Source of the DNA: a bacterium
GTDB lineage: Bacteria; Patescibacteriota; Minisyncoccia; Phycocordibacterales; Zambryskibacteraceae
Direction of reading: 5' to 3'
NCBI GenBank assembly: GCA_030649135.1
Contig: JAUSGI010000002.1
Span: 6,294-70,293 of the forward strand
DNA: 64,000 nt
In this document: positions 10,152 through 54,946 of the stretch, piece by piece
Layout: the number at the start of each line of letters is the position of its first letter
Position numbering within the stretch: the first letter of the stretch is position 1
Position numbers and translations under genes: made by a program
The notes under the pieces: generated by a model
Database searches by the model: none
Seen by the model: the letters and a program-made list of their open reading frames with translations, nothing else
Told to the model about the DNA's origin: nothing

Positions 10152-10154
10152 CCA

Positions 10155-13937: not shown

Positions 13938-13941
13938 CTCG

Positions 13942-14691
13942 TTATTGATAGGTTTTAAATAAGGGATCGTTTCTCATAATTTCTCGCACCCTGATCAAGT
14001 CAGCCTCGGTATCGACATTGAAAGTTTCTTGCTCTGTTTCTACTACCTTAACTTTAGCACCATGTTCAAGAAAGCGTAAGAGATCAATCGATTCTATTGT
14101 TTCAAGTGGTGCCATTCCCCAATTGGTAAAGTCCCGGAGGCTTTCTCGTCGTATGGGATAGACACAGACCATTTTGTAGTGAGAAATCGGCTCTTTGGTC
14201 TTTGCCTTGGAGGGAATGGGTTCGCGCGAATAGAACAATGCATCCCCCTTACCATCTCGAACCACCTTAACTCGATTGCGATCTTCAACTTCAGAAAGGT
14301 CAGTAATTTTTTGCACTAATGTTCCGCATGCATAAGAATCATCTTCAGCCAGTGGCTTGGTAATAGCATCAATCATTTCTGGATAAATCAAGGGCTCATC
14401 GCCTTGAACATTGACAACGAGATCAGCCAAAATCGTTTCATTAGCTTCAGCCAGACGATCCATGGCCATGGTGTGGTCAGGTCGAGTCATAATGGCTTTA
14501 CCACCAAATTTCTCCACTACATCAAATATTTCTTTGTTGGGAGTGGCTACCCAAACTTCATCTAGGAGTTTAGACATCTTGGTGCGAAGCCAGACGTGTT
14601 CAACCATCGTCTTGCCTAAAATATCCACCAAGGGCTTACCTGGGAAGCGAGATGACTCCATCCGAGCTGGAATAATGGCTACAATCTTCAT
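13942..14691 (-). CDS. KdsB-family cytidylyltransferase (CMP-Kdo synthetase-like / CMP-keto-deoxy sugar synthetase)
   Basis: Carries IIPARMESSRFPGKPL and NVQGDEPLI, the hallmark motifs of 3-deoxy-manno-octulosonate cytidylyltransferases. Confidence 0.75.
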   Translation of the reverse strand: MKIVAIIPARMESSRFPGKPLVDILGKTMVEHVWLRTKMSKLLDEVWVATPNKEIFDVVEKFGGKAIMTRPDHTMAMDRLAEANETILADLVVNVQGDEPLIYPEMIDAITKPLAEDDSYACGTLVQKITDLSEVEDRNRVKVVRDGKGDALFYSREPIPSKAKTKEPISHYKMVCVYPIRRESLRDFTNWGMAPLETIESIDLLRFLEHGAKVKVVETEQETFNVDTEADLIRVREIMRNDPLFKTYQ

Positions 14692-15458: not shown

Positions 15459-15459
15459 G

Positions 15460-17489: not shown

Positions 17490-17494
17490 ACGGT

Positions 17495-18412: not shown

Positions 18413-18429
18413 ATATAGGCCATATTAGC

Positions 18430-20571: not shown

Positions 20572-21770
20572 TTAGCTATTTGAACATTTAAATTGAAGTT
20601 TGTTTTGATTCTATCTAAACCAGCTTTACCAAATCTTTCTGCTTTTTCAGGATGGTTGATTAAATCAAGCATTTTTTCTGCCACTTCTTTTGTATGGAAA
20701 GGATTAACCACATATCCAGTGATACCATCCTCAATGATTTCCGGCGCTCCCCCATAGCAAGTGCCCACCACCGGTTTGGCGCAGGCCATCGCCTCAAGCA
20801 CGATTCTGGGGAAAGAATCGAAGATAATTGATGGCACCAAGACAAGGTCGGCACAGGCATAAGCAGATTTTATCTCGTCCCTTTCTATCCAACCAGTAAA
20901 AATTAGTCTACCCCCTATTCCCAACTTGTCTGCCGCCTCTTTCATGCTGGCGGCATACCCCTCCATTTTACCCGCAACCAGGAGTACTACATTATCTACT
21001 TCCTTCTCAAGCTCTGCCATCACTTCAAGTGCCTTTCCCCCGCCTTTAGCCTCACTTAACCGCCCACCGAACAATATTACTTTTTTATTTGTTAGATTAT
21101 ACTTTTCTCTAAATTGGGCTACTTCTTCTCCACTCGTGCGCCACAAATTCACATCAGCTCCGAAATACATCACTTCTACATTTACAATACCATTTTGTTC
21201 AAGAGCTTTTTTTAAGGCACCGCTTACTGCAAAAATTTTGTCCGCGTGTTTGAGATACTTTCTAATGAATAAATTACGAAGGGGATTCCACCTTTTTCTC
21301 GCCTGTTTCAGATGGTCAAACCAAGTTGTATGGGCATCAAAATTTTCCAAATACCGCTTGGTGTGTAGTTTCCCATAATTAAAAGACATGACATCATGAG
21401 CAGTCAAAACCACTACTTTGCTAAACCGCTTCGCAATCACCAGAGTATGGTAAGAGAGGTAGAAGTGAATGTTGTGGGCATGCACTACATCCGGCTTAAT
21501 GTTCTTAAGAAGTTTTGCCACTTGGCGTACAACTGGAGGATTGTACAGACCAAGATAGGAACGCCATCTGGTGGAATAATTGCTGGTAATTTTCCAAACT
21601 TTTATACCATGGTATTCCGATACTCCCGCCTCATCTCTATTTCTACACGTAGTGATCACATAAATCTCGTGACCCATCCTTTTCATGGCGATGGCAAAAT
21701 CATATGCGACAATCCCCGCCCCCCCAAAGCTCTGTGGCGGAAAATCGTCTGAAAGAAAGACTATTCTCAT
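20541..21770 (-). CDS. Glycosyltransferase family 4 (GT-B, Glycos_transf_1)
   Basis: N-terminal Glyco_trans_4 region FPPQSFGGAGIV and the C-terminal EX7E-type region FPRIVLEAMACAKPVV. Confidence 0.8.
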   Translation of the reverse strand: MRIVFLSDDFPPQSFGGAGIVAYDFAIAMKRMGHEIYVITTCRNRDEAGVSEYHGIKVWKITSNYSTRWRSYLGLYNPPVVRQVAKLLKNIKPDVVHAHNIHFYLSYHTLVIAKRFSKVVVLTAHDVMSFNYGKLHTKRYLENFDAHTTWFDHLKQARKRWNPLRNLFIRKYLKHADKIFAVSGALKKALEQNGIVNVEVMYFGADVNLWRTSGEEVAQFREKYNLTNKKVILFGGRLSEAKGGGKALEVMAELEKEVDNVVLLVAGKMEGYAASMKEAADKLGIGGRLIFTGWIERDEIKSAYACADLVLVPSIIFDSFPRIVLEAMACAKPVVGTCYGGAPEIIEDGITGYVVNPFHTKEVAEKMLDLINHPEKAERFGKAGLDRIKTNFNLNVQIAKLIAIYETLY

Positions 21771-23515
21771 ATTTTACGGTAAATGGCTATATCATCGAAT
21801 TCGGCCACTTTAGTTAGGAATTTGTATTTATCCAAATTCCAGAGAGGGTCACTCTTTTTATCCCAAACAAGATACGCCACTTCGTACTTAGTCCAGAGAT
21901 TCTTTAACCATTCCGCCGCGGGTAGAGAAAGCGTTTTTTTATAGGAAAGAGCAATTTCTCTGATTTTCTCATCGGGAAACGCCTCATGTGAACCAAAAAG
22001 CTCCCGATAATGAATCCCGTAAGCCTCAAAAGAAACTTTCTCGCGATCCTTGAGAAACGCATCTTCTACTTCTTTACTGTCCACACCAGCAAGCCTATAA
22101 AACGAAAACATGGTATTAAGCTGACGCGCATAGGTAGCGGATAGGGAGGCAAATGAAGTTGACCGATGGTAAAAAACATTCAGAGGAGTGTAGATAACAG
22201 TTATATGAGAAATCTCGTCATTGGCAAAGACAACAGACTCCTTCTCTGCATTCAGATTGAGCCATTTCATAACCGGCCCATATCTCTGACGCCCAATGAG
22301 AACCGTGCCCCCATCACCCATATCATGAGAATAGGAGTAAGCCTGGACATAAATACCTGTCGTGACACTTGTCACGATAATGAGAACGGCCAAAGCCTTC
22401 TTGTAGAAATCCAGCTTCCAACGAGCAAGCAGGTAGAAAATCACTATGAGCATAAAAATAATAGCCATCGGTTTGTGGAAAAACCAGTGGTAATGCGGCG
22501 CTTCAAGCACTTTGCCCGTGAAAAGCTGTTGATTCAGTGTGACAAAAGGGGTTAAGAGTAAAGCTAAACCAAAAAAATACTTTTCCCTATCCCCTTTCGG
22601 GAAACCTAAGAAAAAAATGATTAGGGCAACAATCACTCCCCAACCAACGAACAAGGGCGCATGGGTTAGAAGTACACCAATATTTGAACTAACTTCATTG
22701 TATGCGGGAAATTGGGTAACTCGGTATAGATTGATAACATAAGGGGTGGCCACCAAAAATGCGCCTAAAAATACGCTGGATATTCTTACCGCCTCTCGCC
22801 ATTTTTTCTGGATGAGAAGCAGCAAAACCAAAACGCCGCCAAAAGAATATAGGTACGTCCATGTGTAAAAATAGTTATAAAAATTCAAACCTAAGAGAAT
22901 GGCGCTAATAACACCGTACTGCCACTTCCGTTTGCGATAGAACAACCAAAAGGCGATTAGGAAGGCAAAAAGAAAAAAGTAGATCATAGCGGGATTCACC
23001 GGCTTGGAGAGCCGTAAAAAATTTTCGTAACTAACGCCGTGGAAGAATAACTGAACAAGGCCGGATTTGCTCAAAATAGAATCCGCCAGTAAATTTACTG
23101 CCGCACCGCAAAGGGCGACCAACTTATCTTTAGATAACAAAAAGACAAAGCCGTAAATTAAAAGGAAAACAATAAACGAGAGCACAAACCGAGATAACAA
23201 GAAGGTATTATTGATATCAAGGGAGAATATTTCCCCCATGTAGGCCACCACCATTGACCCCAGTGGCTGCAGGAGATACGGGTTATCCTTACCATCTTTT
23301 TGATAGATATTGCCGAAATTGGGGTGTCCATCTTGTACTTCCCGGGCTCGCGCCGACCAGGGAGAATCGGGCAACAACTCTATGCCTTGATAAATACCGT
23401 CATTTCTATGTTCAAGACGGAAATAAACCTGCGGTGAAGCCGCAATCACGGAGGTAAGTACAGCCAAAGCAATGGCCACCCGATGTTCACGGAGTATTTG
23501 TTTAAACTGATTCAT
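21767..23515 (-). CDS. Large polytopic membrane protein, putative GT-C-type glycosyltransferase (paralog of 34373..36079)
   Basis: About 12 TM helices plus a C-terminal soluble domain. Paralogy with the 34373 gene shows in the ARxxEVxDGxPxxGN and C-terminal ANDxIS blocks. A 4-nt overlap with the GT4 gene suggests co-translation. Confidence 0.45.
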   Translation of the reverse strand: MNQFKQILREHRVAIALAVLTSVIAASPQVYFRLEHRNDGIYQGIELLPDSPWSARAREVQDGHPNFGNIYQKDGKDNPYLLQPLGSMVVAYMGEIFSLDINNTFLLSRFVLSFIVFLLIYGFVFLLSKDKLVALCGAAVNLLADSILSKSGLVQLFFHGVSYENFLRLSKPVNPAMIYFFLFAFLIAFWLFYRKRKWQYGVISAILLGLNFYNYFYTWTYLYSFGGVLVLLLLIQKKWREAVRISSVFLGAFLVATPYVINLYRVTQFPAYNEVSSNIGVLLTHAPLFVGWGVIVALIIFFLGFPKGDREKYFFGLALLLTPFVTLNQQLFTGKVLEAPHYHWFFHKPMAIIFMLIVIFYLLARWKLDFYKKALAVLIIVTSVTTGIYVQAYSYSHDMGDGGTVLIGRQRYGPVMKWLNLNAEKESVVFANDEISHITVIYTPLNVFYHRSTSFASLSATYARQLNTMFSFYRLAGVDSKEVEDAFLKDREKVSFEAYGIHYRELFGSHEAFPDEKIREIALSYKKTLSLPAAEWLKNLWTKYEVAYLVWDKKSDPLWNLDKYKFLTKVAEFDDIAIYRKI

Positions 23516-34372: not shown

Positions 34373-36079
34373 TTAGAGAGGCAGGGACAAAATCACAAAT
34401 CTCCCGTCATCATACAGGGCCTTGTTTAAAGAGATGCGCTCAAGATTATCGTGAGCACGATCGAGGATGAGATATTTAACGTTAAATTGTTGGAGGAGGG
34501 TGGCTTGATCTTTTTTGACGGTCTTAAAACGCTCTACCAGCGTTTTGAAATATTCTTCCCCGCGGAGAGTAATCGAATCGGTACGTGGCGGACATTGGCG
34601 AGGACCAGCAAAACGCACCCAAACATCGCAGAGCCAGGCGCGCCGGTTTTGAGCTAGAGGCTCTAGTTCTGACGGCCCGGCGCCAGCGTAAAGCCCTAGA
34701 CCACTCTTTATGTCTTCGATCGTCAAAACATCCATGCTATGCGAGACGAGATATCTATCCTCAAGTTCGGGCCCAGAAATATTATGAAGTACCGTACCTT
34801 CTGTAAAGAGTGGGTAGTGCCGAGTCATAATCGGTATATATTCCGAAATTGAATCGTTCGCCCAAATCACAGATTGTTCTGGCACATTTTTATCTAGCCA
34901 TTTTAGCGGGCCAGCATAGGTCTGTAGATCGGCGGTATAATCACTACCACGTTCACCAAAAAACTTGAAAAAATCTAGCCCATGAGGAAGGTTTCTCACC
35001 ACTCCTACCGAGAGTATTGAGAGAAGAATCGCTACTACTATGTATTTGGTTCTGTGGGTTTTTAAAGTTTCTGAGAAATACCATTCATACAAACCGACTC
35101 CTAAAATTATCACCATCCATAAAATGACAAAACGTCCGACATGCACGCCAAGAGTCAGTTCGACGCCAGTAATGATATTTAAACACAAGCTAACGAAGAG
35201 TGCCGCACCTGTCGAGAACCAAAATACTTTTTGTTTTAAAGGCACCAGCCATGTCAAAAGCATTCCGACTGCCAACCAACGACCATAGAAAAAAACTTCT
35301 ATCGATGGAACGCGAGTGTAAACAAGACCAATGCGACTAAGGGTTTCAAAGTAATAAGGGCCCTGCATCTGCATCAAGGTATAGAAACCGAAAGGGATAA
35401 GGAGGAGTGCGGTAAAAATACCGCAGGTCAGAAGCGAGCGTAACTCTTGGAAACGTCTGGTAAACAAAAACCAGAAAAAAATAAAGGCAAAACTTAACAA
35501 GACAATATAAGAAAGATACGAGTAGACATAAAAGGCAGAAGCCGCAGCGAGCGAAAGCCAAACTATCCTCTTTCTCTCATGCGGCTCGTACAAGAACTTC
35601 AGAAGGGCAATGAGAAACATGAGAAAGAAAGGATAAACTATCTGCATAATGGTCGGCCGAAGCATGAGTGAATATAAACTGATATAGAGAAACACCGACC
35701 ACAGGAATGCCCACCCTCTCGGCAAACGCAAGAGCCGGAGCAGGGTAAAGGACAGAGCTAAAAATACAAAACTCCACGCGAACATATTAATCATAACGGC
35801 GAGATTAAACGGCACCCCAAGAAGCATTGGAATCGCTGAGACAATATCCGGCAAGAAAAACGCTGGAGCCAAATCCTTGCGGTATTCATAGACATACGGA
35901 TTGCCGAGGAGCGGGTATCCATCCACCACTTCATGCATGCGCGCATAGTAATACAAACTGTCGGTAGAACCTCTGGGTAAGACGCCCTGCCAGTTTCGCC
36001 ATCCCCCAACTTCGTATATGACAAAAATTGCTGGAATTAGTGTGGCCACCAAAGCGACGGCTAGGAACAATTTCTTCAT
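34373..36079 (-). CDS. Large polytopic membrane protein, putative GtrC/GT-C-type glycosyltransferase (paralog of 21767..23515)
   Basis: About 12 TM helices plus a C-terminal domain. It overlaps the GtrA-like gene by 4 nt. Confidence 0.45.
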   Translation of the reverse strand: MKKLFLAVALVATLIPAIFVIYEVGGWRNWQGVLPRGSTDSLYYYARMHEVVDGYPLLGNPYVYEYRKDLAPAFFLPDIVSAIPMLLGVPFNLAVMINMFAWSFVFLALSFTLLRLLRLPRGWAFLWSVFLYISLYSLMLRPTIMQIVYPFFLMFLIALLKFLYEPHERKRIVWLSLAAASAFYVYSYLSYIVLLSFAFIFFWFLFTRRFQELRSLLTCGIFTALLLIPFGFYTLMQMQGPYYFETLSRIGLVYTRVPSIEVFFYGRWLAVGMLLTWLVPLKQKVFWFSTGAALFVSLCLNIITGVELTLGVHVGRFVILWMVIILGVGLYEWYFSETLKTHRTKYIVVAILLSILSVGVVRNLPHGLDFFKFFGERGSDYTADLQTYAGPLKWLDKNVPEQSVIWANDSISEYIPIMTRHYPLFTEGTVLHNISGPELEDRYLVSHSMDVLTIEDIKSGLGLYAGAGPSELEPLAQNRRAWLCDVWVRFAGPRQCPPRTDSITLRGEEYFKTLVERFKTVKKDQATLLQQFNVKYLILDRAHDNLERISLNKALYDDGRFVILSLPL

Positions 36080-36492
36080 GAGTTTTCATTATGGATGCTA
36101 TCGGGAGAAAAAACCAGGTATTTAAACACAAAAAAACTATAGACGGCGACCAGACCGAGAACAAAAAATTGAGAGATTAGGTAATGAATATGAAGCATAT
36201 CCACACTTATGTATAGGAGTAAAGCATTAACGCCTAGATTTAAAATCTGAATTCCTAGATAAACGAGAGACTGCTGTCTGATTTTCTCTTTTGTATAGTC
36301 GTTGAAAGTGAAAAACTTCTGCATCATGAAACTCACGGCAACCGCCACGATGAAGGCTACGACGGAAGCCAGCAAATACCACATATAAAAAAAGTGTACC
36401 AAGATAAAAAGCATGGTTAGATTTATAACTGCGGCAGAACCACCGGAGATAAGATAGCGAATGGCGCGATGATTAAGGATGATTTTTATCAT
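36076..36492 (-). CDS. GtrA-family small membrane protein (polyprenyl-P-sugar flippase-like)
   Basis: 138 aa with 4 TM helices and YLISGGSAAVINL. Confidence 0.7.
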   Translation of the reverse strand: MIKIILNHRAIRYLISGGSAAVINLTMLFILVHFFYMWYLLASVVAFIVAVAVSFMMQKFFTFNDYTKEKIRQQSLVYLGIQILNLGVNALLLYISVDMLHIHYLISQFFVLGLVAVYSFFVFKYLVFSPDSIHNENS

Positions 36493-36532: not shown

Positions 36533-37090
36533 ATGATAAAAGAATACCTAGAAAAATCCTTGGCGGTAAAAAATGCCGCGCTGACCGATCAAAGCTTCCT
36601 TGAAAATGCGGAGAAAGCGGGACGGCAAATTTATGACTCGCTGATGGCCGGTAAACATATTTATATCGCCGGTGTTGGCGGAGCAGCCGCAGAGTCGCAA
36701 CATTTCTCCGCAGAACTCTTGGGTAAATACTCTGCGATGAGGAGAGCTTTTCCGGCAGTAGCCTTAACTACCGACTCCTCAATGCTTACTGCTTGGGCAA
36801 ATGATACCAGCTTTGACTTTATATTTTCGCGCCAACTTGAAGGCCTTGGAAAAGAAGGGGATATATTTGTCGCTCTCTCCGCGGGAGGAAACTCACCTTG
36901 TATCGTAGAAGCTCTTAAGACGGCAAACTCTATCGGAATGATCTCCATTGGTCTTTTGGGTAAAAGTGGCGGAAAAGCCAAAGAAATGTGCACCATTCCC
37001 ATCGTCGTCCCTTCAGATGTTACTTCTCACATTCAAGAAACCCATCTCATGCTTGTTCACTTTTTCTGCGAATATTTAGAACCGCAGTAA
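36533..37090 (+). CDS. gmhA: SIS-domain phosphoheptose isomerase (sedoheptulose-7-P isomerase)
   Basis: Motifs GVGGAAAESQHFSAEL and ALSAGGNS. The start is taken at ATG 36533; the track start at 36479 overlaps the GtrA gene. Confidence 0.7.
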   Translation: MIKEYLEKSLAVKNAALTDQSFLENAEKAGRQIYDSLMAGKHIYIAGVGGAAAESQHFSAELLGKYSAMRRAFPAVALTTDSSMLTAWANDTSFDFIFSRQLEGLGKEGDIFVALSAGGNSPCIVEALKTANSIGMISIGLLGKSGGKAKEMCTIPIVVPSDVTSHIQETHLMLVHFFCEYLEPQ

Positions 37091-37098
37091 ACAAATAC

Positions 37099-37127
37099 TT
37101 GACATTTGCATAGTATACAGATATAAT
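37099..37127 (+). promoter_or_regulatory. Perfect consensus sigma70-type promoter TTGACA-N17-TATAAT
   Basis: TTGACAtttgcatagtatacagaTATAAT, with a strong SD AAAAGGAGG 6 nt before the ATG at 37171. Confidence 0.55.
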
Positions 37128-37170
37128 CGGGAAAGAACTCATTCCCCTACACTACAAAAGGAGGGCACAC

Positions 37171-37848
37171 ATGCCCACGATTCTCAAGGCCATTCTTTGT
37201 GATGTCGACGGAGTGCTCGTCGACACAGAGGGTCTGCATTTTCAGGCGTGGGATTGGATTTGTCGTGATATCGGAGGACAACCCCTCACTCAGGAAGAAC
37301 ACGCTACTCTCGTTGGGAAAGACGGGCCAGTCATCATGAGGGAACTTTCCCAGATGAAGGGGTTCGGCGGCGATCTGACCAAACTCAATGACCGTTGCCG
37401 AGAGAAGTACATCGAGTTACGGCAGACTGGGAACATCCCAGTCATCATGGAGAACGTTATGCTTCTTCGTGAGTTTGCCGAGCTGTACTCGGGCTTAAGG
37501 TTCGCGGCTGTTTCTTCCGATACTCACGACCATATTCAGCAGAACCTTCGGGTAGCTGGGCTTGAAAATTTCTTCGAACTGGCAGTTTCCGCCCATTCAG
37601 ACGGTTTGAAGAAGAAGCCCGCCCCCGACGTGTGGTTGGTGGCGATGAAGAGACTCGGAGTCGCTCCAGAAGAATGCCTAGCTTTCGAAGATTCACCAGC
37701 CGGAGTCGAATCTGTCACCAGCGCCGGGGTCAGGGTAGTGGCGCTACCCAGCCCCTCAACTGTATCCTGTAGCTTCCCGACCGCTCACACGGTCATCAAA
37801 CCAGGAGAAAGGAAAAACGCCAGAGAAATCCTTGCGCGCGTGATGTAG
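37171..37848 (+). CDS. HAD-IA hydrolase (beta-phosphoglucomutase/phosphatase-like), GC-rich
   Basis: DVDGVLVDTE (DxD), the motif II S/T and the K/DD motifs AFEDSPAG. Confidence 0.75.
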   Translation: MPTILKAILCDVDGVLVDTEGLHFQAWDWICRDIGGQPLTQEEHATLVGKDGPVIMRELSQMKGFGGDLTKLNDRCREKYIELRQTGNIPVIMENVMLLREFAELYSGLRFAAVSSDTHDHIQQNLRVAGLENFFELAVSAHSDGLKKKPAPDVWLVAMKRLGVAPEECLAFEDSPAGVESVTSAGVRVVALPSPSTVSCSFPTAHTVIKPGERKNAREILARVM

Positions 37849-37860
37849 TGTGCTCACCAA

Positions 37861-37890
37861 GAGCCGGGTCCTGACCCGGCTCTTTTCAAT
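37861..37890 (+). terminator. Hairpin GAGCCGGG-tcctga-CCCGGCTC followed by TTTTCAAT
   Basis: 12 nt downstream of the HAD gene stop; it also abuts the stop of the convergent 37890 gene. Confidence 0.6.
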
Positions 37891-38381
37891 TACGATTTTT
37901 CTTTATAAATTTTAAGAATCTTTTCTATAATATTTGTCGTCGACTGAACACGGCCAGGAATAATTACCACCTTATCTACATTCTCGCGCACAAAGTCTGC
38001 TTGAATATTTTGTTCCACAGTATAATCTCCACCTTTAGTATAAATGTCAGGGTGGACTGCTTTCAAAAAAGTGCCCGGGTCTTTTTCATCAAAAATATGA
38101 ACGTAGTCGACGCAAGCCAGAGCTGCCACCACTTCCGCGCGTTCACGTTCAGGAATGATTGGACGAAGTTTTGATTTGTATTGTCTTACCGAAGCATCTG
38201 AATTTATACCCACTACTAGAATATCACCAAGCAATTTACTTTCTTCTAGAAGTATTTTCTGGCCGATGTGGAATACATCAAAAGCACCGTTGGTAGCTAC
38301 AATTTTTTTACCATGCTTTTTGAGTTCCTCGACTCTTGCTTCAAGCTCGGAGAGAGAAACAATTTTGTGAGCTGTTTTCAT
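37890..38381 (-). CDS. Heptose-1-phosphate adenylyl/nucleotidyl-transferase (HldE domain II / RfaE-II-like cytidylyltransferase fold)
   Basis: Start reassigned to ATG 38381 (MKTAHKIVSL). Carries the HxGH-type motif NGAFDVFHIGQ and the region GINSDASV. Confidence 0.7.
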   Translation of the reverse strand: MKTAHKIVSLSELEARVEELKKHGKKIVATNGAFDVFHIGQKILLEESKLLGDILVVGINSDASVRQYKSKLRPIIPERERAEVVAALACVDYVHIFDEKDPGTFLKAVHPDIYTKGGDYTVEQNIQADFVRENVDKVVIIPGRVQSTTNIIEKILKIYKEKS

Positions 38382-38409
38382 ATCAGACAGTATACAGCTG
38401 AAAAAATAC

Positions 38410-38437
38410 TTGACAAGTAGGCTAAATCTATTATAAT
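38410..38437 (+). promoter_or_regulatory. Perfect consensus sigma70-type promoter TTGACA-N16-TATAAT
   Basis: TTGACAagtaggctaaatctatTATAAT, then SD GAGGAG 6 nt before the ATG at 38477. It shares the AATACTTGACA prefix with the promoter at 37099. Confidence 0.55.
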
Positions 38438-38476
38438 CAGAAGCAGACACAATCAATATAAACGCGAGGAGAACGT

Positions 38477-39211
38477 ATGAACTTCGCTGAGTTCTGCTCA
38501 AAACAAAGCAGTATCTACGACGACATGCGGAAGCAGGAATGCGAGGAATCACGGATCACAGGGATGATGGAAGATCCCGGGCTCGTCACTAGGAGAGGCG
38601 GGTTTTTTCTCTCCCTCATTCACCCGCCTGAGTTTGCTCAGAAAGTAGCGGATTTCTCCGCCAAGGTTGGCGCCCTGATGCCAGCAATGGTTTACAGCAA
38701 CAAGGAGATACACACGACCGTCGGGTCAATTTCCACTTCGGTCATCCCACACTTCTATTTCGACGGAAACCGTGAGGACCATGCGCACCAGCTTTCCGTC
38801 ATCGAACGCGTGGCGGAGGAGACAGCAAAGAGAGTGAAAGCGGGGGTATGCAAAATTGGTTTTATTACGCCCTGCATCCTTCTGCCGAATCTCATCATCG
38901 CGCCGGGCGAAGCGAATCAGAGCGTCTTCGAAGTGACGACCGCGCTGACCGAATTCGGTACACAGATGGGGTTAGCAATGGCCCCATGCAAAAACGGCCA
39001 TGTGACAGTCAACCGCTTCACCGAAGCGAAGAGTGTAGGGGAAATATCCGATATTCTTAGGTTGATGGAGAAGGAGCCACCCTTTGGTGTCAGTCATCCG
39101 ATCGGGATCGCAGCGGGTTACACACTGCGTCACGAATCCGAACGAAATGTTACTGACCTTCGCGAAACACCCGGGCACTTCCACGGCACCAAGTTCTTCC
39201 GGTTCCAATAA
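38477..39211 (+). CDS. 2H phosphoesterase superfamily protein (LigT / cyclic phosphodiesterase-like), GC-rich
   Basis: Two H-x-T-x motifs, EIHTTVGS and NGHVTVNR, about 95 residues apart. Confidence 0.45.
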   Translation: MNFAEFCSKQSSIYDDMRKQECEESRITGMMEDPGLVTRRGGFFLSLIHPPEFAQKVADFSAKVGALMPAMVYSNKEIHTTVGSISTSVIPHFYFDGNREDHAHQLSVIERVAEETAKRVKAGVCKIGFITPCILLPNLIIAPGEANQSVFEVTTALTEFGTQMGLAMAPCKNGHVTVNRFTEAKSVGEISDILRLMEKEPPFGVSHPIGIAAGYTLRHESERNVTDLRETPGHFHGTKFFRFQ

Positions 39212-39215
39212 AGAC

Positions 39216-39246
39216 GGCCACCTCGAAGTTTGAGGTGGCCTTTTAT
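39216..39246. terminator. Bidirectional hairpin GGCCACCTC-gaagttt-GAGGTGGCC with T-tracts on both strands
   Basis: Sits between the convergent 2H-phosphoesterase and transaldolase genes. Confidence 0.65.
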
Positions 39247-39248
39247 CC

Positions 39249-39971
39249 TTAATACGCGCTGATGCCATAGCCCGCAGCCTTGGCATCATCGTAGAACATT
39301 CGTACTGTTTCGAGCGAGTAGACGTCGTGGTCCTTGCCGACGAGCGACAACTTCTTGAGGATGTCGTTGGTTGCCGTGATGATGTGACAACCGACGGAGT
39401 CGGCCTGGAAGACATTGAGAAGCTCGCGTGGGCTGGCCCAGATGAGCTCAGCCTTCGGCCTCGCTCTCATGATCTCGACTGCCTGTTGCATTAACGGCAT
39501 CGGATCAACCCCGGTGTCAGCGATACGCCCTGCAAATACCGAGATGATGGCCGGTGTCCCTGGTGAGAGATGCTCGGTCACGGCCTTCACTTGTTCCAGA
39601 GTGAGTAACGCCGTGACGTTGAGCTTCACGCCAGCGTGCGACAGCCGCTCGATAAGCGGGCCACTCGACTCCCCTGTCGTGTTGGTGACTGGAATCTTGA
39701 CGTAGACGTTATCGCCCCACGAGGCGATGACGCGCGCTTGCGCCTCCATCTCATCGAAGTCGTCAGCGAAAACTTCGAACGACACCGGGCGATCCGAGAT
39801 AGTGGCGAGCACTTCCTTGGCAAACGCCTTGTAGTCAGTGACACCCGCCTTCCTCATCAGCGTAGGGTTGGTCGTGAACCCTTTAATGAGGGGGTTCGCG
39901 TACATCTCCTTCATGCCGGTGAGGTCCGCGCCGTCTGCGAATAACTTGATTTTGAGTTCTTGGATGTTCAT
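39249..39971 (-). CDS. tal: Transaldolase / fructose-6-phosphate aldolase (short Tal/FSA type), GC-rich
   Basis: TTNPTL and the Schiff-base lysine region VYVKIPVT. Its ATG overlaps the stop of the upstream kinase gene (ATGA). Confidence 0.85.
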   Translation of the reverse strand: MNIQELKIKLFADGADLTGMKEMYANPLIKGFTTNPTLMRKAGVTDYKAFAKEVLATISDRPVSFEVFADDFDEMEAQARVIASWGDNVYVKIPVTNTTGESSGPLIERLSHAGVKLNVTALLTLEQVKAVTEHLSPGTPAIISVFAGRIADTGVDPMPLMQQAVEIMRARPKAELIWASPRELLNVFQADSVGCHIITATNDILKKLSLVGKDHDVYSLETVRMFYDDAKAAGYGISAY

Positions 39972-40933
39972 GAGTTTTTCTCCTTTAAGATTTTCACTAA
40001 ATCTTTCCTTCTGGGTGGCATAGTACCATGAATTTTAGTTGAAAGTGCTCCCCAGATATTGGCTATCCTAAGAGATTCTTCAGGTCGGTTTCTATCTCCA
40101 AGACTAAAAGCCGCCAAAAAAGCATCGCCTGCCCCGCAAACATCGACCGCTTTTACTTTATATGGCCGGCTTTTTATATACTGGTCACTAAATATAGCTA
40201 TGGAGCCTAGACCACCCAGTTTAACCACAACATTTTTTAGCTTTAACTTTTTCATTATTACCAAAAGAGACTGCTCAGGCTTTTGGAGATTAAACTTAGG
40301 GTACACACTCTTAGCTTCTTTTTGGTTTAAAAACATCGTGTCTACCCCTTTATATAAATGGTGATTCGAAGGACGGTGAAAAACTTGCACATCGACATGC
40401 AAAGGTTTTTTATATTTCTTACTCATAGCAACAATATTTTTAATCAACTTTTTTGAGAGCATTCCATGCTGGGGGTCCATAATAACAACAACGTCTACAT
40501 GTGGGGCATTAGCTTCCACTAATTTAATTATTTTTTTCTCCAGATCGGAATTAATGTAGTGATTATCAACTTTGTTAACTTGTAGGAGTTTCAGATTTTT
40601 GTCATACCATCTTCTCTTAACAGTCGTTTTCCGGGTCGGATCTATTAAAAAAATCTTTTTTAATTTTGGATGTGTCCACGAATCATAATATTTCGCATCT
40701 TCATCGTCACCCAAGATGGTAACAAAAGTTACCCTCCCCCCGAGATTTAAAATATGACTGGCAATCAGTCCATTACCACCGAAAAATATTGATGACTTTC
40801 TCTCTTCCATTTCTGGCGCAGGAGCATCAGGAGACAGACCGATAGTATTGCCATAAATATAAATATCCAGTATAGTGTCGCCCACTAGCAACACCTTTTT
40901 ATCTTTAAATGACCTTATAATATCTGGCTTCAT
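39968..40933 (-). CDS. PfkB-family sugar kinase, heptose-7-phosphate kinase-like (HldE domain I / RfaE-I)
   Basis: Motifs LLVGDTILDIYIYG, GGNGLIASHILNLGG and DVCGAGDAFLAAFSLG. Confidence 0.7.
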   Translation of the reverse strand: MKPDIIRSFKDKKVLLVGDTILDIYIYGNTIGLSPDAPAPEMEERKSSIFFGGNGLIASHILNLGGRVTFVTILGDDEDAKYYDSWTHPKLKKIFLIDPTRKTTVKRRWYDKNLKLLQVNKVDNHYINSDLEKKIIKLVEANAPHVDVVVIMDPQHGMLSKKLIKNIVAMSKKYKKPLHVDVQVFHRPSNHHLYKGVDTMFLNQKEAKSVYPKFNLQKPEQSLLVIMKKLKLKNVVVKLGGLGSIAIFSDQYIKSRPYKVKAVDVCGAGDAFLAAFSLGDRNRPEESLRIANIWGALSTKIHGTMPPRRKDLVKILKEKNS

Positions 40934-40957
40934 CCATGGTATAATACACTTTTTGCT

Positions 40958-41734
40958 ATGAAATATAAATCTATTCTTCTAGATGTCGACGGGACACTTG
41001 TCGCTGTCGGACCCAATACAATTCCATCTGAAAGAGTGCGAGAAGTCCTAAGCCATGCCAAATATGTGGCACATGTTTCTCTTGTTTCTGGACGTTGTCT
41101 TGATTGGCTCAAAGAAATCTTTCGAGTCCTTGATTTGACAGCTCCTTCTATTATCAACGGTGGTTCACAAATCATTAATCCAAAAACGGGAGAGATTCTT
41201 TGGGAGCGGCCAATCACGCAAGAAGATGTGGGAAAAGTGCTAAGAATAGTTACAAGAGACGGGATTCCTTTTGTGGTCAGTGACAACGGTATTGAGTATG
41301 AGAATCCACCCCAGTCCGAATTTACTAATCCCCTTGCTATAAAACTTTCGTATTTTGATTCTAAAGAGAAATCTGACCAGTGTCTAAAGATTCTAGAATC
41401 GATACAGGGTATTTCGGCCCATAAAACTTTTTCCTGGAATAAAGAAAGAAACTACATAATGGATATATACATCACTCATAGAGAAGCCACCAAACATCAC
41501 GCTGCCGAAGAATTAGCAAAAATTTTAGGAATTGAAACTCATGAAATGATAGGGGTTGGTGATGCTCGAAACGACGTTCCCCTGCTCAATGTGTGTGGAC
41601 TAAAGGTGGCTATGGGTAACGCCGACGACAAACTGAAGAAAATTGCTCATTACATTGCCCCTAGTGTAGACGAGGACGGTGTGGCTCACGTGGTGGAGAA
41701 GTTTATTCTTTCTCAATTGGTCTGTTCTGGCTAG
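40958..41734 (+). CDS. HAD-IIB (Cof/YidA-like) sugar phosphatase
   Basis: LLDVDGTL and GVGDARNDVPLL. Confidence 0.7.
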   Translation: MKYKSILLDVDGTLVAVGPNTIPSERVREVLSHAKYVAHVSLVSGRCLDWLKEIFRVLDLTAPSIINGGSQIINPKTGEILWERPITQEDVGKVLRIVTRDGIPFVVSDNGIEYENPPQSEFTNPLAIKLSYFDSKEKSDQCLKILESIQGISAHKTFSWNKERNYIMDIYITHREATKHHAAEELAKILGIETHEMIGVGDARNDVPLLNVCGLKVAMGNADDKLKKIAHYIAPSVDEDGVAHVVEKFILSQLVCSG

Positions 41735-42860
41735 CTTCTTTGAGAGCTTCTACTGCCGCAGTTATAACATCTTCAAGACGGGTGGACTCCGCTATGCGCT
41801 CCGCTTCTTTAACATCGTGATTCCGCGTGTTCATAATACAAAGTAATGGTTTGGGTCCTCCGGGGGGAAAGACCATCTTGTGAATTTTGCCTTGCGGCGG
41901 CTGGTCCCATGGATTAACTGGGCCGAGGATATCGACCGTTGGGATATTAAAGGCTTCAGCAATGTATAGAGGGCCAGTATTGACACTCACAAAAACATCC
42001 AGCTTCGATATGATCGCCTTTAATTCGTCTATTGATACAGAAGTGGTATCAGTCACCATTGATTTATCCTCGATCGCCAACATCATTTCATTAGACTCGC
42101 GTAGGTCGTTCCTACCGCCAATAACAAAAATATGGACGCTAAACTTTTCGATAAGATGATTCGCTACTTTGGCAAAATTTTTTGGACTCCATTGCTTTTC
42201 TTTATTACCAGAACCGGCTGCAATACCAACGATATATTTGTATGGTTCACATATTTGAGAAATTATCTCCGCAGCCCTTTTTTCAGCAGTTTCGGAAAAG
42301 CCAAGGTGTTTGGTGGTATCGTCTGTAAAAATACCGAGTGATTCGAGAGCTTTCAATCTTTCTCTGGGAGCATATCCATCCAACTGATGCGGAAAGGTCT
42401 TAATAAGCCTCTGAAGAATTTTATAGGGCCTGGTCACATCATGGGCTACACCTCCCACGGCAGCCGGAGCTATCACTAAGGGAATCCCGGCAAGGTAAAG
42501 TAGAGAGGTGTGTTTAAATGATGGGCCAGTCACTATCGCTACTTCAGGATGATATTTTTTAATACGTTCTGTAGCCCCTTCATCCTCCAGATCAACATAT
42601 TCATTAACCAATCTACTGTCCGACAAAAGTGGACGATGCAATTTAGAATTACCCGCTACGATAATACGCGCTTTCGGTAAGTGCGCTCGAATGGCACGCA
42701 AGACTGGTGTAGCACAGACCACATCGCCCAGTTTACCAGTTGGCACCACCACAATATCGGAAATGCTTTTGGGAATCTTAGTGGCAGTTCCGTGGAAAAG
42801 TGCCCTTATTAGACATTGGACAAGAAGTAGCATTCTATTGGCTCTATTTAAAAAATCCAT
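41703..42860 (-). CDS. Glycosyltransferase family 9 (ADP-heptose:acceptor heptosyltransferase, RfaF/RfaC-like)
   Basis: GT9 architecture: PTGKLGDVVCATPVLRAIR, then GIAAGSGNKEKQWSPKNF and the VNTGPLYIAEAFNIP region. Confidence 0.8.
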   Translation of the reverse strand: MDFLNRANRMLLLVQCLIRALFHGTATKIPKSISDIVVVPTGKLGDVVCATPVLRAIRAHLPKARIIVAGNSKLHRPLLSDSRLVNEYVDLEDEGATERIKKYHPEVAIVTGPSFKHTSLLYLAGIPLVIAPAAVGGVAHDVTRPYKILQRLIKTFPHQLDGYAPRERLKALESLGIFTDDTTKHLGFSETAEKRAAEIISQICEPYKYIVGIAAGSGNKEKQWSPKNFAKVANHLIEKFSVHIFVIGGRNDLRESNEMMLAIEDKSMVTDTTSVSIDELKAIISKLDVFVSVNTGPLYIAEAFNIPTVDILGPVNPWDQPPQGKIHKMVFPPGGPKPLLCIMNTRNHDVKEAERIAESTRLEDVITAAVEALKEASQNRPIEKE

Positions 42861-42923: not shown

Positions 42924-44450
42924 TCAAGTAGTTTTTCCGCCCTCCCATCGCGTCCCGATTTCTATCTGGAGACGCTTTCTGCGGTACTCCTCCGAGTTGA
43001 CGCCAAACTCCGCCCATTGTTGCAGTTCCTCGATTCTTTCCGGAGGTACTGTCGTGTTCTTCATGACAGCATTCCTCCAGTTAAAAATATCGGGGTCGAA
43101 GTCTTGCACCAAGTACCCGTCACGCAGAGCCAAATCATGTAGGTTACTGCCGGGCAGAGGAACAGGGATCTTGAAAGAACAGTAATCTGCCCCCGCACCC
43201 ACCAGCCGCCGGCCGAGCTCGATCGAGGACATCATCTCTGCCTCGGTCTCGTCCGGGAAACCGATCATCATGTTGATGGGGCACGTGATACCGATATTCC
43301 TCGCAACCCTCACCAGCTCGACTACATCGAGTCGTTCATGGTTGAGCTTCCTCGTCGCATGCTGGTCAAGAATGCGCTGGGAAGCTGACTCCACCGGGAA
43401 AACGATCTGTGTGAGACCGCAGTCATAGAGGAGTTGCAGGAACTCTACATCGATGACCGGCTTGCCTCCGACGCTTCCCTTGAGAAAGTGCACCAGATTC
43501 ACTCCGTTCACGTCAGCGAGCTTGAGCCCCAGGCCTCGGACTTTCCCGAGAATCTTACGCATCCGCGGCTTGTTGGCCAGGAGCGTATCATCCTCGAGGT
43601 AGACTTTTGTGACACCAAGGCTCTTGAGTATTGAGAGCTCTTCGAACACCCGCGCTTCGGACTTGAAGCGCAACTTGGCGATCCCGCCACTCTCCTCTTC
43701 ATTTTCACTTTCTTTAGAGATGTGGCAGTACGAGCACTTGAAAATACATCCGCGGGATGTTTGCATGTTCCCGGAACGCTCTGGGTCTTTGAGAAAGGCC
43801 CTTCCGCCAGCTGCTTCGGCACGATCGTAATGCATCCAGGGAAGCTTGTGCCATGCCGGGATGGGCAGAGCATCAAGATTAGTGAGCGTATCCCCCACTT
43901 GAGGAAAACGTCTCACGATTCTCCCATTCTGCATGGTGACTGTTCCAGAGACGGCGAGACTTTCCCCCGCTTCCCAGGCTTGGATGACCTCGACGACCAC
44001 CCGCTCACCTTCGGTATTGCAAATGGCATCTACGCCGGCCGCGAGGAACCGTTTGTGAAGAGCTCGGGCGTTAACGCCACCGGCAATGACCAGGATTTCC
44101 GGAGATACTGCCTTGGCCGCCTTGACGACTTCAAGTGCCATCCTGTGCTGCGGAGTGAAAATGGAGCTAAGACCGACAACGTTGTAGCCACCACGAGCGA
44201 TGACCTCACTCATCCGATCGGTCGTCATGCCGATACGGGTGAGGCCGTTTTCCTGCATGACAAGCTTGTCGAAGGTGTCTTCAAGCTTGTCATCCGGCGT
44301 GCCGACATTGGCGTCGAGCAACTCCGACTCAATACCGGCTCGTTCGAGCGAGGCATCGAGATACAAGAGACCGAGCGAACCATCGACACGACGGGCTTCT
44401 CTCTTCGCCAACTGGGTAGGATGGTAAATGAGCAGAGCTTTTGCCTTCAC
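42924..44450 (-). CDS. B12-binding domain radical SAM enzyme (class B rSAM, methyltransferase-like), GC-rich
   Basis: N-terminal cobalamin-binding-like Rossmann region and the radical SAM cluster motif SRGCIFKCSYCH. GTG start preceded by SD AGGGGGG. Confidence 0.8.
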   Translation of the reverse strand: MKAKALLIYHPTQLAKREARRVDGSLGLLYLDASLERAGIESELLDANVGTPDDKLEDTFDKLVMQENGLTRIGMTTDRMSEVIARGGYNVVGLSSIFTPQHRMALEVVKAAKAVSPEILVIAGGVNARALHKRFLAAGVDAICNTEGERVVVEVIQAWEAGESLAVSGTVTMQNGRIVRRFPQVGDTLTNLDALPIPAWHKLPWMHYDRAEAAGGRAFLKDPERSGNMQTSRGCIFKCSYCHISKESENEEESGGIAKLRFKSEARVFEELSILKSLGVTKVYLEDDTLLANKPRMRKILGKVRGLGLKLADVNGVNLVHFLKGSVGGKPVIDVEFLQLLYDCGLTQIVFPVESASQRILDQHATRKLNHERLDVVELVRVARNIGITCPINMMIGFPDETEAEMMSSIELGRRLVGAGADYCSFKIPVPLPGSNLHDLALRDGYLVQDFDPDIFNWRNAVMKNTTVPPERIEELQQWAEFGVNSEEYRRKRLQIEIGTRWEGGKTT

Positions 44451-50891: not shown

Positions 50892-51114
50892 GTGGAGGGC
50901 CTTGTGAAATACGATTTGAGCCTGTTTTTTGTCGATTCTACAGCCCCCTTCAAGTGTTGCTCAAATCGTAATTCAATATCATTAGTATACCCGACATAAA
51001 AATTTCCATCTTTTTGACTCTGTAGAACATAGACGTAGAATTTTTCATCAAATACAGACATGATATTGAATTATTTCACTGGGCAAGTCCAACGATGGAA
51101 AAAACCCAAAATAG

Positions 51115-53257: not shown

Positions 53258-53266
53258 TATTATTAT

Positions 53267-54945: not shown

Positions 54946-54946
54946 A

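Follow-up and report, generated by a model that had tools for sequence, protein, structure and literature searches.

The heptose genes of the window (the whole 64-kb stretch of DNA that was analyzed) appear, with moderate confidence, to form, within a large surface-glycan locus of Patescibacteria (Paceibacteria-type), the module for sugar supply, which would provide NDP-heptose for a lipid-linked surface glycan and not for lipid A-core. All the genes named in an initial annotation were found where it had placed them and matched the expected families by open reading frame (ORF) and profile searches, in the order GT9-Cof-HldA-TAL-HldC-GmhA (TAL, transaldolase). From sequence, we infer the substrates, the nucleotide used, the acting HAD, and the acceptor. 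The transaldolase would supply sedoheptulose-7-P, which GmhA would convert to D-glycero-D-manno-heptose-7-P and the PfkB/HldA-type kinase to the beta-1,7-bisphosphate; a HAD phosphatase, most likely the conserved Cof-type enzyme replacing the missing GmhB, would take off the 7-phosphate. The cytoplasmic GT9 would add the heptose to a lipid-linked oligosaccharide built by neighboring GT4/GT2 enzymes and decorated by methyltransferases and a radical-SAM enzyme. After export or ligation by Wzx with a Wzy_C-type protein, the product would end as a surface polymer of a single-membrane cell rather than as lipid A-core.

The first enzyme, a GmhA-type sedoheptulose-7-phosphate isomerase (36533..37090, plus strand; the ORF can start at 36479), matched SIS_2 at 70 bits. 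Its top models, TIGR00441 among them (155 bits, below the cut-off of 209), were all phosphoheptose isomerase, and NF010546 gave 171.6 bits, also below its cut-off. The best PDB matches were again all phosphoheptose isomerases (1TK9, E value of 1.4e-44), outranking the paralogue DiaA, and the H/E/Q/H active-site positions aligned with those of Campylobacter jejuni GmhA (155 bits). The gene is kept in the same place in loci L004, L005, L085, L087-089, and L111. Farther along, a stand-alone HldC-type heptose-1-phosphate nucleotidyltransferase (37890..38381, minus strand) scored 151.6 bits with TIGR02199 rfaE_dom_II (cut-off, 181.5) and had HldC of Burkholderia pseudomallei as its best PDB match (5X9Q, 97.6 bits, 44% identity), with an HxGQ motif where HxGH is usual. 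Between these two genes lies a HAD-IA hydrolase of the beta-phosphoglucomutase family (beta-PGM-like; 37171..37848, plus strand; TIGR02009, 98.7 bits; GC3 of 0.60) that the initial annotation missed. It has its own predicted 12/12 consensus promoter at 37099-37127, and homologues occur within the cassettes of L089 and L119 (37% identity), with weaker ones in L092-096. We consider it a candidate accessory gene, whose product might serve as the 7-phosphatase instead of Cof.

The PfkB-family kinase (39968..40933, minus strand) is of the HldA/RfaE-domain-I type (heptose-7-phosphate 1-kinase), with TIGR02198 rfaE_dom_I leading the other models by about 100 bits (160.8 bits, cut-off of 345, versus 57 bits for ribokinase); in a single-sequence search, other PfkB kinases were as near to it as HldA was. 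Homologues of 48 to 50% identity carry a fused HldC domain. The N terminus of its 321-aa ORF fits the family consensus, so that the start originally assigned is right, and the coupling to the transaldolase was verified as a 4-nt ATGA overlap in which the transaldolase start lies on the kinase stop codon. The transaldolase (39249..39971, minus strand) is of the "staph" type (TIGR02134, 373.8 bits, above the cut-off of 282), has a GC3 of 0.74, and is syntenic in relatives with 76 to 84% identity. It converges on a gene for a 2H-phosphoesterase-fold protein (38477..39211, plus strand), correctly labeled before and lacking a Pfam match, and between them is a bidirectional terminator-like hairpin (39216..39240), which has 7 GC pairs in its 11-bp stem and a T-tail on either strand. 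The proposal that horizontally acquired transaldolase and 2H genes had split two halves of HldE failed, since HldC and HldA are separate throughout the family. A TAL-family gene was found near the kinase in 23 of 28 kinase-centered loci, and members of the 2H family repeatedly accompany HldC-type genes. Where fused forms do appear in the kinase family, they read HldC-HldA, the reverse of Escherichia coli HldE. The high GC3 of both genes is real and is also common to the relatives, so any transfer must be old.

A Cof-type HAD-IIB phosphatase (40958..41734, plus strand; TIGR00099, 126.8 bits) is convergent with GT9, their 3' ends overlapping by 32 nt. Neither a GmhB nor an HldD-type epimerase was recognizable in the window by profile searches (NCBIfam profiles for the former), and in view of the latter the heptose is probably left as the D,D form. 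The suggestion that Cof substitutes for GmhB is plausible on sequence grounds, because the gene is syntenic in every close relative (L004-006, L084-090, and L111, 60 to 80% identity) and never co-occurs with the small HAD-IIIA-like phosphatase of a sister cassette type.

The last gene of the pathway encodes a GT9-family, heptosyltransferase-like glycosyltransferase (41703..42860, minus strand), and the analysis bore out this assignment as a full-length GT-B enzyme whose predicted fold is nearest to the LPS heptosyltransferases WaaF and WaaC of E. coli. PF01075 scored 51.8 bits against a gathering threshold of 22; the motifs LGD, K-x-W-P, and DTGP are conserved; and the predicted structure (AF2 pLDDT of 91.3) had WaaF (1PSW), 3TOV, and WaaC as top Foldseek matches. 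The GT9 of Veillonella parvula (3TOV, a structural-genomics entry) was also the best sequence match among solved structures (family profile over residues 32 to 333, E value of 5e-29) and shares LGDV, K-x-W-P, and D(S/T)GP, although identity is only about 20%; Veillonella is a diderm with LPS. Profile and PDB matches thus uphold the step assignments of the initial annotation (GmhA, HldC, kinase, Cof, transaldolase, and GT9). As for the profiles named there, PF01075 exceeded its gathering score, whereas TIGR02198 and TIGR02199, the best matches, and TIGR00441, one of the top ones, stayed below their cut-offs. Since GmhA, HldA, and HldC all scored below the NCBIfam equivalog cut-offs, they are divergent members, identified at the level of the family.

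The block GT9-Cof-HldA-TAL-HldC-GmhA is no chance arrangement, being syntenic in three GTDB genomes and at least eight metagenome contigs, and the order is repeated in loci L004-L006 and L084-L089/L111; L084, the closest relative, has no GmhA at the corresponding position. Co-occurrence extended to the 28 kinase-centered loci, with HldC within 7 kb of the kinase in 24 and GT9 nearby in 17, the latter being present in 17 of the 18 loci with kinases above 300 bits. More distant loci of the same kinase family also have a TAL-family gene, HldC, and usually GT9, with a bicupin in place of GmhA and a small HAD in place of Cof; bicupin was present and GmhA absent in 18/28, RpiB appeared in 14/28, and class II aldolase in 10/28. 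The pathway steps are further tied together by fusions in the wider family (HldC-HldA, RpiB-HldC, and cupin-HAD). From the side of GT9, a heptose gene of any kind lay within 10 kb in only about 13 of 80 Patescibacteria loci, so that the link between GT9 and heptose rests mainly on the kinase-centered view.

The surroundings are those of a glycan locus, as initially proposed, with GT2/GT4 genes, Wzx, a Wzy_C/O-antigen-ligase-like protein, and cohesin/dockerin proteins, together with methyltransferase genes. Directly upstream of GT9, a B12-binding radical-SAM (methyltransferase-like) enzyme (42924..44450, minus strand) is a probable glycan-modifying partner; it is syntenic in L006, L084-088, and L111 (61 to 90% identity), and the heptose cassette of L164 also contains a radical-SAM gene. 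The cassette is flanked by a GtrA-like protein (36076-36492) and, at 34373-36079, a polytopic membrane protein of 568 aa with about 10 to 12 transmembrane (TM) segments and no Pfam match, both on the minus strand and both syntenic in L004-006 and L084-089. Another membrane protein lacking a Pfam match (582 aa, roughly 8 TM; 21767..23515, minus strand) is among the commonest GT9 neighbors, with homologues in 41 of the 80 loci (E < 1e-6), the 19 strong ones all on the same strand and 1.7 to 6.2 kb downstream of GT9; unk313 (36/80) and generic GT4 genes are also frequent. Surface proteins are encoded downstream (51974-56287, 58011-61088, and 62092-63525).

The glycan super-locus also includes a KdsB-type CMP-3-deoxy-manno-octulosonate (CMP-Kdo) synthetase (13942..14691, minus strand), missed initially, which passed the trusted NCBIfam cut-offs (NF009905, 290.5 versus 255; TIGR00466, 166 versus 155.2). 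At least one Kdo-pathway-type enzyme is therefore present, and as this KdsB is genuine, chemistry like that of the LPS core might still operate. GT9 could, like WaaC/WaaF, add heptose to Kdo or a Kdo-like ulosonic acid activated by KdsB, giving a Kdo-heptose motif whose anchor would be a lipid or polymer other than lipid A. KdsB-like genes are found downstream of GT9 on the same strand in 10 to 13 of the 80 loci, L059 has the row GT9-MT-HAD-KdsA-like-KdsB, and WaaF and WaaC, nearest in fold, act on Kdo-lipid A or Hep-Kdo. However, no KdsA, KdsD, or Kdo transferase was recognizable in the window, a KdsA-like gene appeared in just 1 of 160 loci, KdsB and GT9 are 27 kb apart in the window, and co-location is no proof of Kdo as the acceptor; we consider this acceptor unlikely, if conceivable. 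It amounts to a more specific version of the explanation that we prefer. A different activated sugar (an octose, a differently configured heptose, or another ketose-derived aldose) or another GT9 donor seems less likely still. The sub-cut-off scores of all core enzymes would suit it, as would the wider kinase family, in which a bicupin isomerase takes the place of GmhA and TAL/FSA, RpiB, and class II aldolase are further companions, and CAZy GT9 includes more than heptosyltransferases; yet the clade of the window has a clear GmhA in the block, and in both cassette types RfaE domains I and II are the best matches of kinase and nucleotidyltransferase.

Almost all GT9 homologues that carry a name come from Patescibacteria (Paceibacteria-type) metagenome-assembled genomes (MAGs), a few bearing DPANN archaeal labels, and the same MAG origin holds for nearly all those of the kinase; if generic or odd TPA labels are set aside, all 80 GTDB GT9 loci are from Patescibacteria. 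These CPR/Patescibacteria, with tiny genomes, are described in the literature as monoderm or Gram-positive, which makes a non-lipid-A acceptor the likeliest reading, as the initial annotation had supposed. An ordinary diderm LPS inner-core locus, with ADP-heptose for WaaC/WaaF-type transfer to Kdo2-lipid A, would account for GT9, GmhA, HldA, HldC, and KdsB, all classical LPS-core functions. Besides the lineage, the setting (Wzx/Wzy-type with GtrA and cohesin/dockerin proteins) and the failure to find lpx, waaA, or kdsA among the envelope-glycan genes of the 64-kb window make it highly improbable. Only slightly more credible, and very unlikely in itself, is O-heptosylation by GT9 of proteins that are secreted or lie at the surface (for example, the cohesin/dockerin or repeat proteins encoded downstream), comparable to that of autotransporters by TibC/AAH. 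Those enzymes are also GT-B and use ADP-heptose on a non-LPS acceptor, and TibC is a structural relative of GT9, but a far worse match (E value of about 1e-8 and TM-score of about 0.52, versus 1.4e-17 and 0.81 for WaaF/WaaC); TibC/AAH are absent from the sequence-profile matches. Moreover, the conserved GT9 neighbors are GT4/GT2, methyltransferases, and a polytopic membrane protein, with no specific substrate protein among them and no autotransporter substrate in the window.

Compared with known systems, the proposed NDP-heptose supply for a lipid-linked glycan shares with the LPS-core ADP-heptose route GmhA, a PfkB-type kinase, a cytidylyltransferase-fold HldC, and a GT9 of WaaF/WaaC-like predicted fold, and separate HldA and HldC genes are an arrangement already known. 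It differs in having a Cof-type HAD-IIB instead of GmhB (HAD-IIIA), in lacking a recognizable HldD in the window, in the embedded transaldolase and 2H phosphoesterase, and presumably in the acceptor, which would not be Kdo2-lipid A in a host lineage described as monoderm. The S-layer glycan route of the Gram-positive Aneurinibacillus thermoaerophilus, which makes GDP-D-glycero-alpha-D-manno-heptose via GmhA/HddA/GmhB/HddC, likewise starts with GmhA and supplies heptose to a surface glycan other than LPS in a bacterium with one membrane. There, however, the kinase is the GHMP-type HddA (alpha-anomer) and HddC has an NTP_transferase fold, whereas the PfkB-type kinase and HldC-type transferase of the window indicate, judged by their families, a beta/ADP-type route; the window has a single NTP_transferase (29847-30551), whose match is generic (HddC, 102 bits versus a cut-off of 300). 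NDP-heptose enzymes are also known outside LPS, from the Streptomyces pathways for septacidin and hygromycin B and from the cross-kingdom HBEs of Tang et al. 2024 (as summarized in PMC11461863). All four activities (isomerase, kinase, phosphatase, and nucleotidyltransferase) are present there in organisms that lack LPS, the nucleotidyltransferase being alone or fused to the kinase. The pathway of the window is instead coupled to GT9 and a Wzx/Wzy-type glycan locus and not to a natural-product cluster, and the HldC-HldA fusion order sets its kinase family apart. ADP-heptose biosynthesis was noted as encoded in Paceibacteria in 2022, and the present cassette is a variant of this known system.

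The genes of the split nucleotide-heptose pathway proposed by the initial annotation were all recovered, each in place and in its expected family, by an open reading frame (ORF) listing combined with profile searches. In the step-by-step profile check the GT9 glycosyltransferase scored above its cut-off, and GmhA, the HldA-type kinase, and HldC fell below their equivalog cut-offs with the expected families still as top models. The top-scoring NCBIfam models for GmhA (SIS_2 family, 36533 to 37090, + strand) were phosphoheptose isomerases, all of them under the equivalog cut-off (TIGR00441, 155 bits versus 209.45; NF010546, 171.6 versus 276). In a search of PDB sequences its best match was Campylobacter jejuni GmhA (1TK9, E = 1.4e-44), which together with 12 more GmhA structures outranked the paralogue DiaA (E = 2e-27), and the active-site segments QHFxAEL and IQExHxxxxH aligned with those of characterised GmhA. 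The stand-alone HldC (37890 to 38381, - strand) reached 151.6 bits on TIGR02199 (cut-off 181.5), with B. pseudomallei HldC as its best PDB match (97.6 bits). Its nucleotidyltransferase motif, at residues ca. 34 to 41, reads FHIGQ and not HxGH; FHIGQ also occurs in the HldC of one homologous locus (L051), and HVGH is kept in three close relatives (L004 to L006). The PfkB kinase of the HldA (RfaE domain I) type (39968 to 40933, - strand) scored 160.8 bits on TIGR02198 versus a cut-off of 345, a model that nevertheless led by ca. 100 bits (ribokinase came next with 57) and was covered from position 2 to 313 of 315. As a single sequence searched against solved structures, this kinase matched HldA no better than it matched PfkB kinases of other types. 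Its ORF is 321 aa long, with an N terminus that agrees with the family, and its stop codon overlaps the start of the transaldolase gene (TAL; 39249 to 39971, - strand; TIGR02134, 373.8 bits, above cut-off) as ATGA.

Two further genes had been missed, an HAD-IA gene between GmhA and HldC (37171 to 37848) and a KdsB-type gene (13942 to 14691, - strand; NF009905, 290.5 bits versus 255; TIGR00466, 166 versus 155.2). The pathway contains no HAD-IIIA histidinol-phosphatase-like gene that would correspond to GmhB: its two HADs are the HAD-IA protein and a Cof-type HAD-IIB protein found by profile search (40958 to 41734, + strand), and matches to HAD-IIIA models were marginal. From synteny with the rest of the cassette, we infer that Cof takes the place of GmhB. 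There was no recognisable HldD either, since the four SDRs of the window scored 36 to 71 bits on TIGR02197 (cut-off 274.6) and were all better matched by other sugar dehydratase/epimerase models; the expected product is therefore a D,D-heptose. The S-layer-type GDP-heptose pathway (GmhA/HddA/GmhB/HddC) differs from this set, which has a PfkB-type kinase and a CTP_transf_like transferase in place of a GHMP-family HddA and an NTP_transferase-fold HddC; no GHMP kinase of the HddA family was found among the window ORFs.

The GT9 gene itself (41703 to 42860, - strand) matched PF01075 with 51.8 bits (gathering score 22), a match confined to residues 173 to 325. Its AF2 model (pLDDT 91.3, pTM 0.89) is a two-domain GT-B fold for which Foldseek returned WaaF 1PSW as the best hit (E = 1.4e-17, TM 0.81), together with 3TOV and WaaC (6DFE/2H1H). 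The structural ranking was E. coli WaaF, then 3TOV, then WaaC, with TibC far more distant, and the family profile aligned over nearly the full length of the GT9 structure 3TOV (E = 5e-29). The motifs LGD, K-x-W-P, and DTGP are conserved and aligned to LGDV, KRWP, and DSGP of 3TOV; among 29 family members D46, K222, W224, and G296-P297 were invariant, and T295 nearly so. The N-terminal G-D motif holds what we take to be the equivalent of the catalytic Asp of WaaC, and the D-(S/T)-G motif belongs to the donor site. Since the model lies nearer to WaaF/WaaC than to TibC, a lipid-linked glycan would be favoured as the putative acceptor over protein heptosylation. We found 197 homologues, the named ones from Zambryski-, Levy-, Vogel-, Kaiser-, and Yanofskybacteria (Patescibacteria) plus a few with DPANN labels; the GTDB (one genome per species) yielded 80 loci, all of the Patescibacteria type barring generic TPA labels. 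In NCBI records, these proteins carry the GT9 annotation already.

The gene order GT9-Cof-HldA-TAL-HldC-GmhA-GtrA-568-aa membrane protein was common to the three closest GTDB relatives (GT9 identity of 63 to 69%) and at least eight metagenome contigs. When metagenomes were scanned with the kinase family as the seed, 80 loci were returned; counts were made for the 28 that extend 4 kb or more on each side, the neighbourhood being defined as 7 kb around the kinase; the counts include near-duplicates (e.g., L087/L088/L100, L102/L103/L105, and L144/L145/L147), and the fractions are approximate. HldC was present in 24 of the 28 and a TAL/FSA-family gene in 23, followed by a phosphomannose isomerase (PMI)-like bicupin (18), a small HAD-IIIA/EcbF-like phosphatase (15), RpiB (14), a class II aldolase (10), Cof (7), and GmhA (6). 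GT9 appeared in 17, and in 17 of the 18 where the kinase exceeded 300 bits; this co-location with heptose genes is the one line of support for ADP-heptose as the putative GT9 donor. Seen from the GT9 side the link was weaker, with any heptose gene within 10 kb in ca. 13 of the 80 GT9-centred loci. GmhA and the bicupin were mutually exclusive (GmhA only in 6 loci, bicupin only in 18, both in none, neither in 4), and Cof went with GmhA as the small HAD did with the bicupin. Given these alternations and counts, the window is one variant (GmhA, Cof, and a staph-type TAL) of a broader cassette.

In the sister version, the order is RpiB(-)HldC, HldA, PMI-like bicupin, TalC/FSA-type TAL, and small HAD, with or without the class II aldolase and GT9 (L102, L105, L109, L112, L115, L118, L119, L127, L133, L137, L144, L146, and L147; e.g., L112, 8872 to 14418). 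Fusions tie several steps together, namely HldC-HldA, RpiB-HldC, and bicupin-HAD, the last found in L118 at 10904 to 12073. Kinase homologues with 48 to 50% identity carry a fused HldC domain; the database proteins P0211, P0214, and P0221 (L096 region, 9530 to 10888) are such HldC-HldA fusions of 461 to 463 aa with the nucleotidyltransferase at the N terminus. E. coli HldE has its domains in the reverse order, which implies an independent fusion event. The bicupin is a candidate for a non-orthologous substitute of GmhA; nothing on a cupin heptose isomerase was found in the searched literature. The closest relative, L084 (GT9 91% identical), has no GmhA at this site, so that any GmhA it possesses must lie elsewhere; the position of GmhA and HAD-IA (13040 to 14580) is occupied there by a YdjM-like membrane protein of 119 aa and a 394-aa protein without Pfam match. 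A B12-binding radical-SAM methyltransferase-like gene adjoins GT9 in the window clade (42924 to 44450, - strand) and lies within the heptose cassette of the locus L164 (3315 to 5126), a placement that hints that the heptose or the glycan may be C-methylated or modified by some other radical reaction.

Within the cassette, in the window clade and in L118 and L119, lies a gene (38477 to 39211, + strand, in the window) for which the label of 2H phosphoesterase proved correct, as the protein carries two H-x-T/S motifs on a 2H fold. The family at first seemed ultra-rare (nine clusters), an artefact of word-indexed searching; an exhaustive search at E ≤ 1e-3 gave 395 representatives. Four of five sampled distant members directly adjoin an HldC-type gene whose product shares 42 to 48% identity with HldC of the window; in most cases a further 2H gene, of the PF13563 type, accompanies the pair. 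The fifth member belongs to another nucleotide-sugar cluster. The trio of 2H, HldC-type, and PF13563-type 2H genes (L164, 5230 to 8076; L165, 1149 to 3109; L166, 5350 to 7391; L167, 3406 to 5405) is kept even without other heptose genes nearby, and L164 holds the full set GT9-PfkB-rSAM-SIS-2H-HldC-2H'. The window has no second (PF13563-type) 2H gene, and L111 retains a fragment of one. The L164 GT9 (1 to 2236, - strand; 792 aa) is fused to a Glyco_trans_1_2 domain and adjoins the PfkB kinase, a two-transferase fusion in a heptose cassette. Beta-manno NDP-heptoses are labile and break down to heptose 1,2-cyclic phosphate; speculatively, a possible role of the 2H protein would be to hydrolyse this compound back to the HldC substrate. 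A profile search of the protein against PDB sequences returned nothing useful, and neither heptose cyclic phosphate nor any link between a 2H enzyme and heptose was found in the searched literature.

The initial annotation had read the TAL and 2H genes as a horizontally acquired insert between the two HldE halves. The region is indeed a compositional mosaic, with a GC3 of 0.60 to 0.74 in five genes (33552 to 34310, 37171 to 37848, 38477 to 39211, 39249 to 39971, and 42924 to 44450, among them TAL, 2H, HAD-IA, and radical-SAM), versus 0.31 to 0.48 in their neighbours and 0.31 to 0.39 in HldA, HldC, Cof, and GT9. However, the bias of TAL, 2H, and radical-SAM is common to relatives, so any transfer must be old, and this shared bias, synteny, and the order of the natural fusions conflict with a recent insertion that split HldE; the recurrence of the 2H family beside HldC-type genes speaks against a random insert. 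Two promoter sequences with perfect 12/12 matches to the sigma-70 consensus (TTGACA-N16/17-TATAAT) lie directly upstream of the high-GC3 accessory genes HAD-IA (37099 to 37127, + strand) and 2H (38410 to 38437, + strand). A strong bidirectional hairpin is located at 39216 to 39240, and a terminator with a 12-bp stem (42917 to 42889, - strand) separates the radical-SAM gene from GT9.

GT9 also belongs to a second conserved arrangement. The gene at 21767 to 23515 (- strand) encodes a 582-aa protein with ca. eight transmembrane (TM) segments and no Pfam match, which has homologues in 41 of the 80 GT9 loci (E < 1e-6); 19 strong ones lie 1.7 to 6.2 kb downstream of GT9 on the same strand, and the window copy is very strongly conserved with that of L018 (12901 to 14676; 716 bits). 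A KdsB-like gene occurs 3' of GT9 on the same strand in 10 to 13 of the 80 Patescibacteria loci, and in L059 GT9-MT-HAD-KdsA-like-KdsB are consecutive. A conserved order is seen, GT9-GT2-MT-8TM-GT4-FkbM-like-KdsB, which suggests a core locus for an envelope glycan, so far uncharacterised. The window retains the order GT9/8-TM/KdsB, with ca. 18 kb, heptose cassette included, inserted between GT9 and the 8-TM gene. Upstream of KdsB on the same strand (14715 to 19113) are SDR, Zn-ADH, TIM-barrel isomerase-like, 2-hydroxyacid dehydrogenase, and Pgl-like genes, which might make a non-canonical ulosonic acid. PDB sequence searches with unk313, a common neighbour of GT9 in Patescibacteria loci, and with unk633 gave nothing useful, and lenient Pfam scans of six unassigned ORFs gave only sub-threshold GT1/GT2 hints.

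Heptose and GT9 enzymes are textbook functions of the LPS core, and ADP-heptose is an agonist of innate immunity. Within the 64-kb window, where KdsB is present, neither lpxA-D nor waaA was found, and KdsA and KdsD were not visible. CPR have been placed in a monoderm clade and predicted to be Gram-positive, and a cultured strain of the class Paceibacteria is Gram-positive. The co-location of GT9 and KdsB makes a Kdo-heptose motif on an anchor other than lipid A a live, unproven possibility; on Kdo in CPR, nothing was found in the searched literature. The surroundings are a glycan super-locus of ca. 45 kb with a Wzy_C-type protein, Wzx, many GT2/GT4, methyltransferases, aminosugar genes, and GtrA, after which come IS200-like genes and cohesin/dockerin proteins. 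The cohesin and dockerin/Big_6 surface-protein genes (51974 to 56287) lie between two IS200-like Y1 transposase genes (51060 to 51902 and 56399 to 57067, both + strand). Further on are a 1,025-aa DUF2341/LamG protein (58011 to 61088, - strand) and a protein that combines a Peptidase_S74 (endosialidase-chaperone) domain with proline-rich acidic repeats (62092 to 63525, - strand), both typical CPR surface or phage-tail-like proteins. The window also encodes Obg, SecA, and DsbB, and scans for tRNAs and Rfam families gave no matches. Its DNA is also present in a Logan contig (37 kb), and the NCBI MAG protein P0244 (Q7R69_00260) matches part of the 2H gene with 100% identity.

In the pathway that we propose, TAL would supply sedoheptulose-7-phosphate, which GmhA would convert to heptose-7-phosphate; the HldA-type kinase would add a phosphate at position 1, Cof, or possibly HAD-IA, would take off the 7-phosphate, and HldC would add the nucleotide. 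GT9 would then move the heptose onto a lipid-linked surface glycan, for export from a monoderm cell through its Wzx/Wzy-type machinery. The weak points of this scheme are the core-enzyme scores beneath the equivalog cut-offs, HxGQ in place of HxGH in HldC, and the lack of GmhA at this site in L084. The most inclusive version, which as a whole we consider improbable, is that Paceibacteria-type CPR build an inner-core-like Kdo-heptose glycoconjugate without lipid A, through the conserved co-directional GT9...8-TM...KdsB locus and a self-contained heptose cassette, with a previously unrecognised 2H family, almost always beside HldC, serving the nucleotide-heptose step and the PMI-like bicupin replacing GmhA in sister lineages.

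That Paceibacteria encode an ADP-heptose pathway is already reported in the KEGG-module analysis of Chiriac et al. (PMC9166423), and NDP-heptose enzymes are described across kingdoms, outside LPS producers, by Tang et al. (2024), as summarised in PMC11461863. As far as the searched literature goes, what appears to be new is the cassette architecture with embedded TAL, Cof for GmhB, and the HldC-2H pairing, as well as the GmhA/bicupin alternation and the conserved GT9...KdsB locus. If true, an entire abundant radiation of ultra-small single-membrane bacteria would retain, for a surface polymer other than LPS, a dedicated heptose cassette together with a WaaC/WaaF-like transferase, which would widen the known uses of heptose and GT9 chemistry. 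It would also provide candidates for three so far unassigned activities, namely a Cof-type heptose-bisphosphate phosphatase, an HldC-coupled 2H phosphoesterase, and, in the relatives, a cupin-type heptose-phosphate isomerase. A conserved envelope-glycan locus of Paceibacteria is indicated, the product of which may matter in host attachment.
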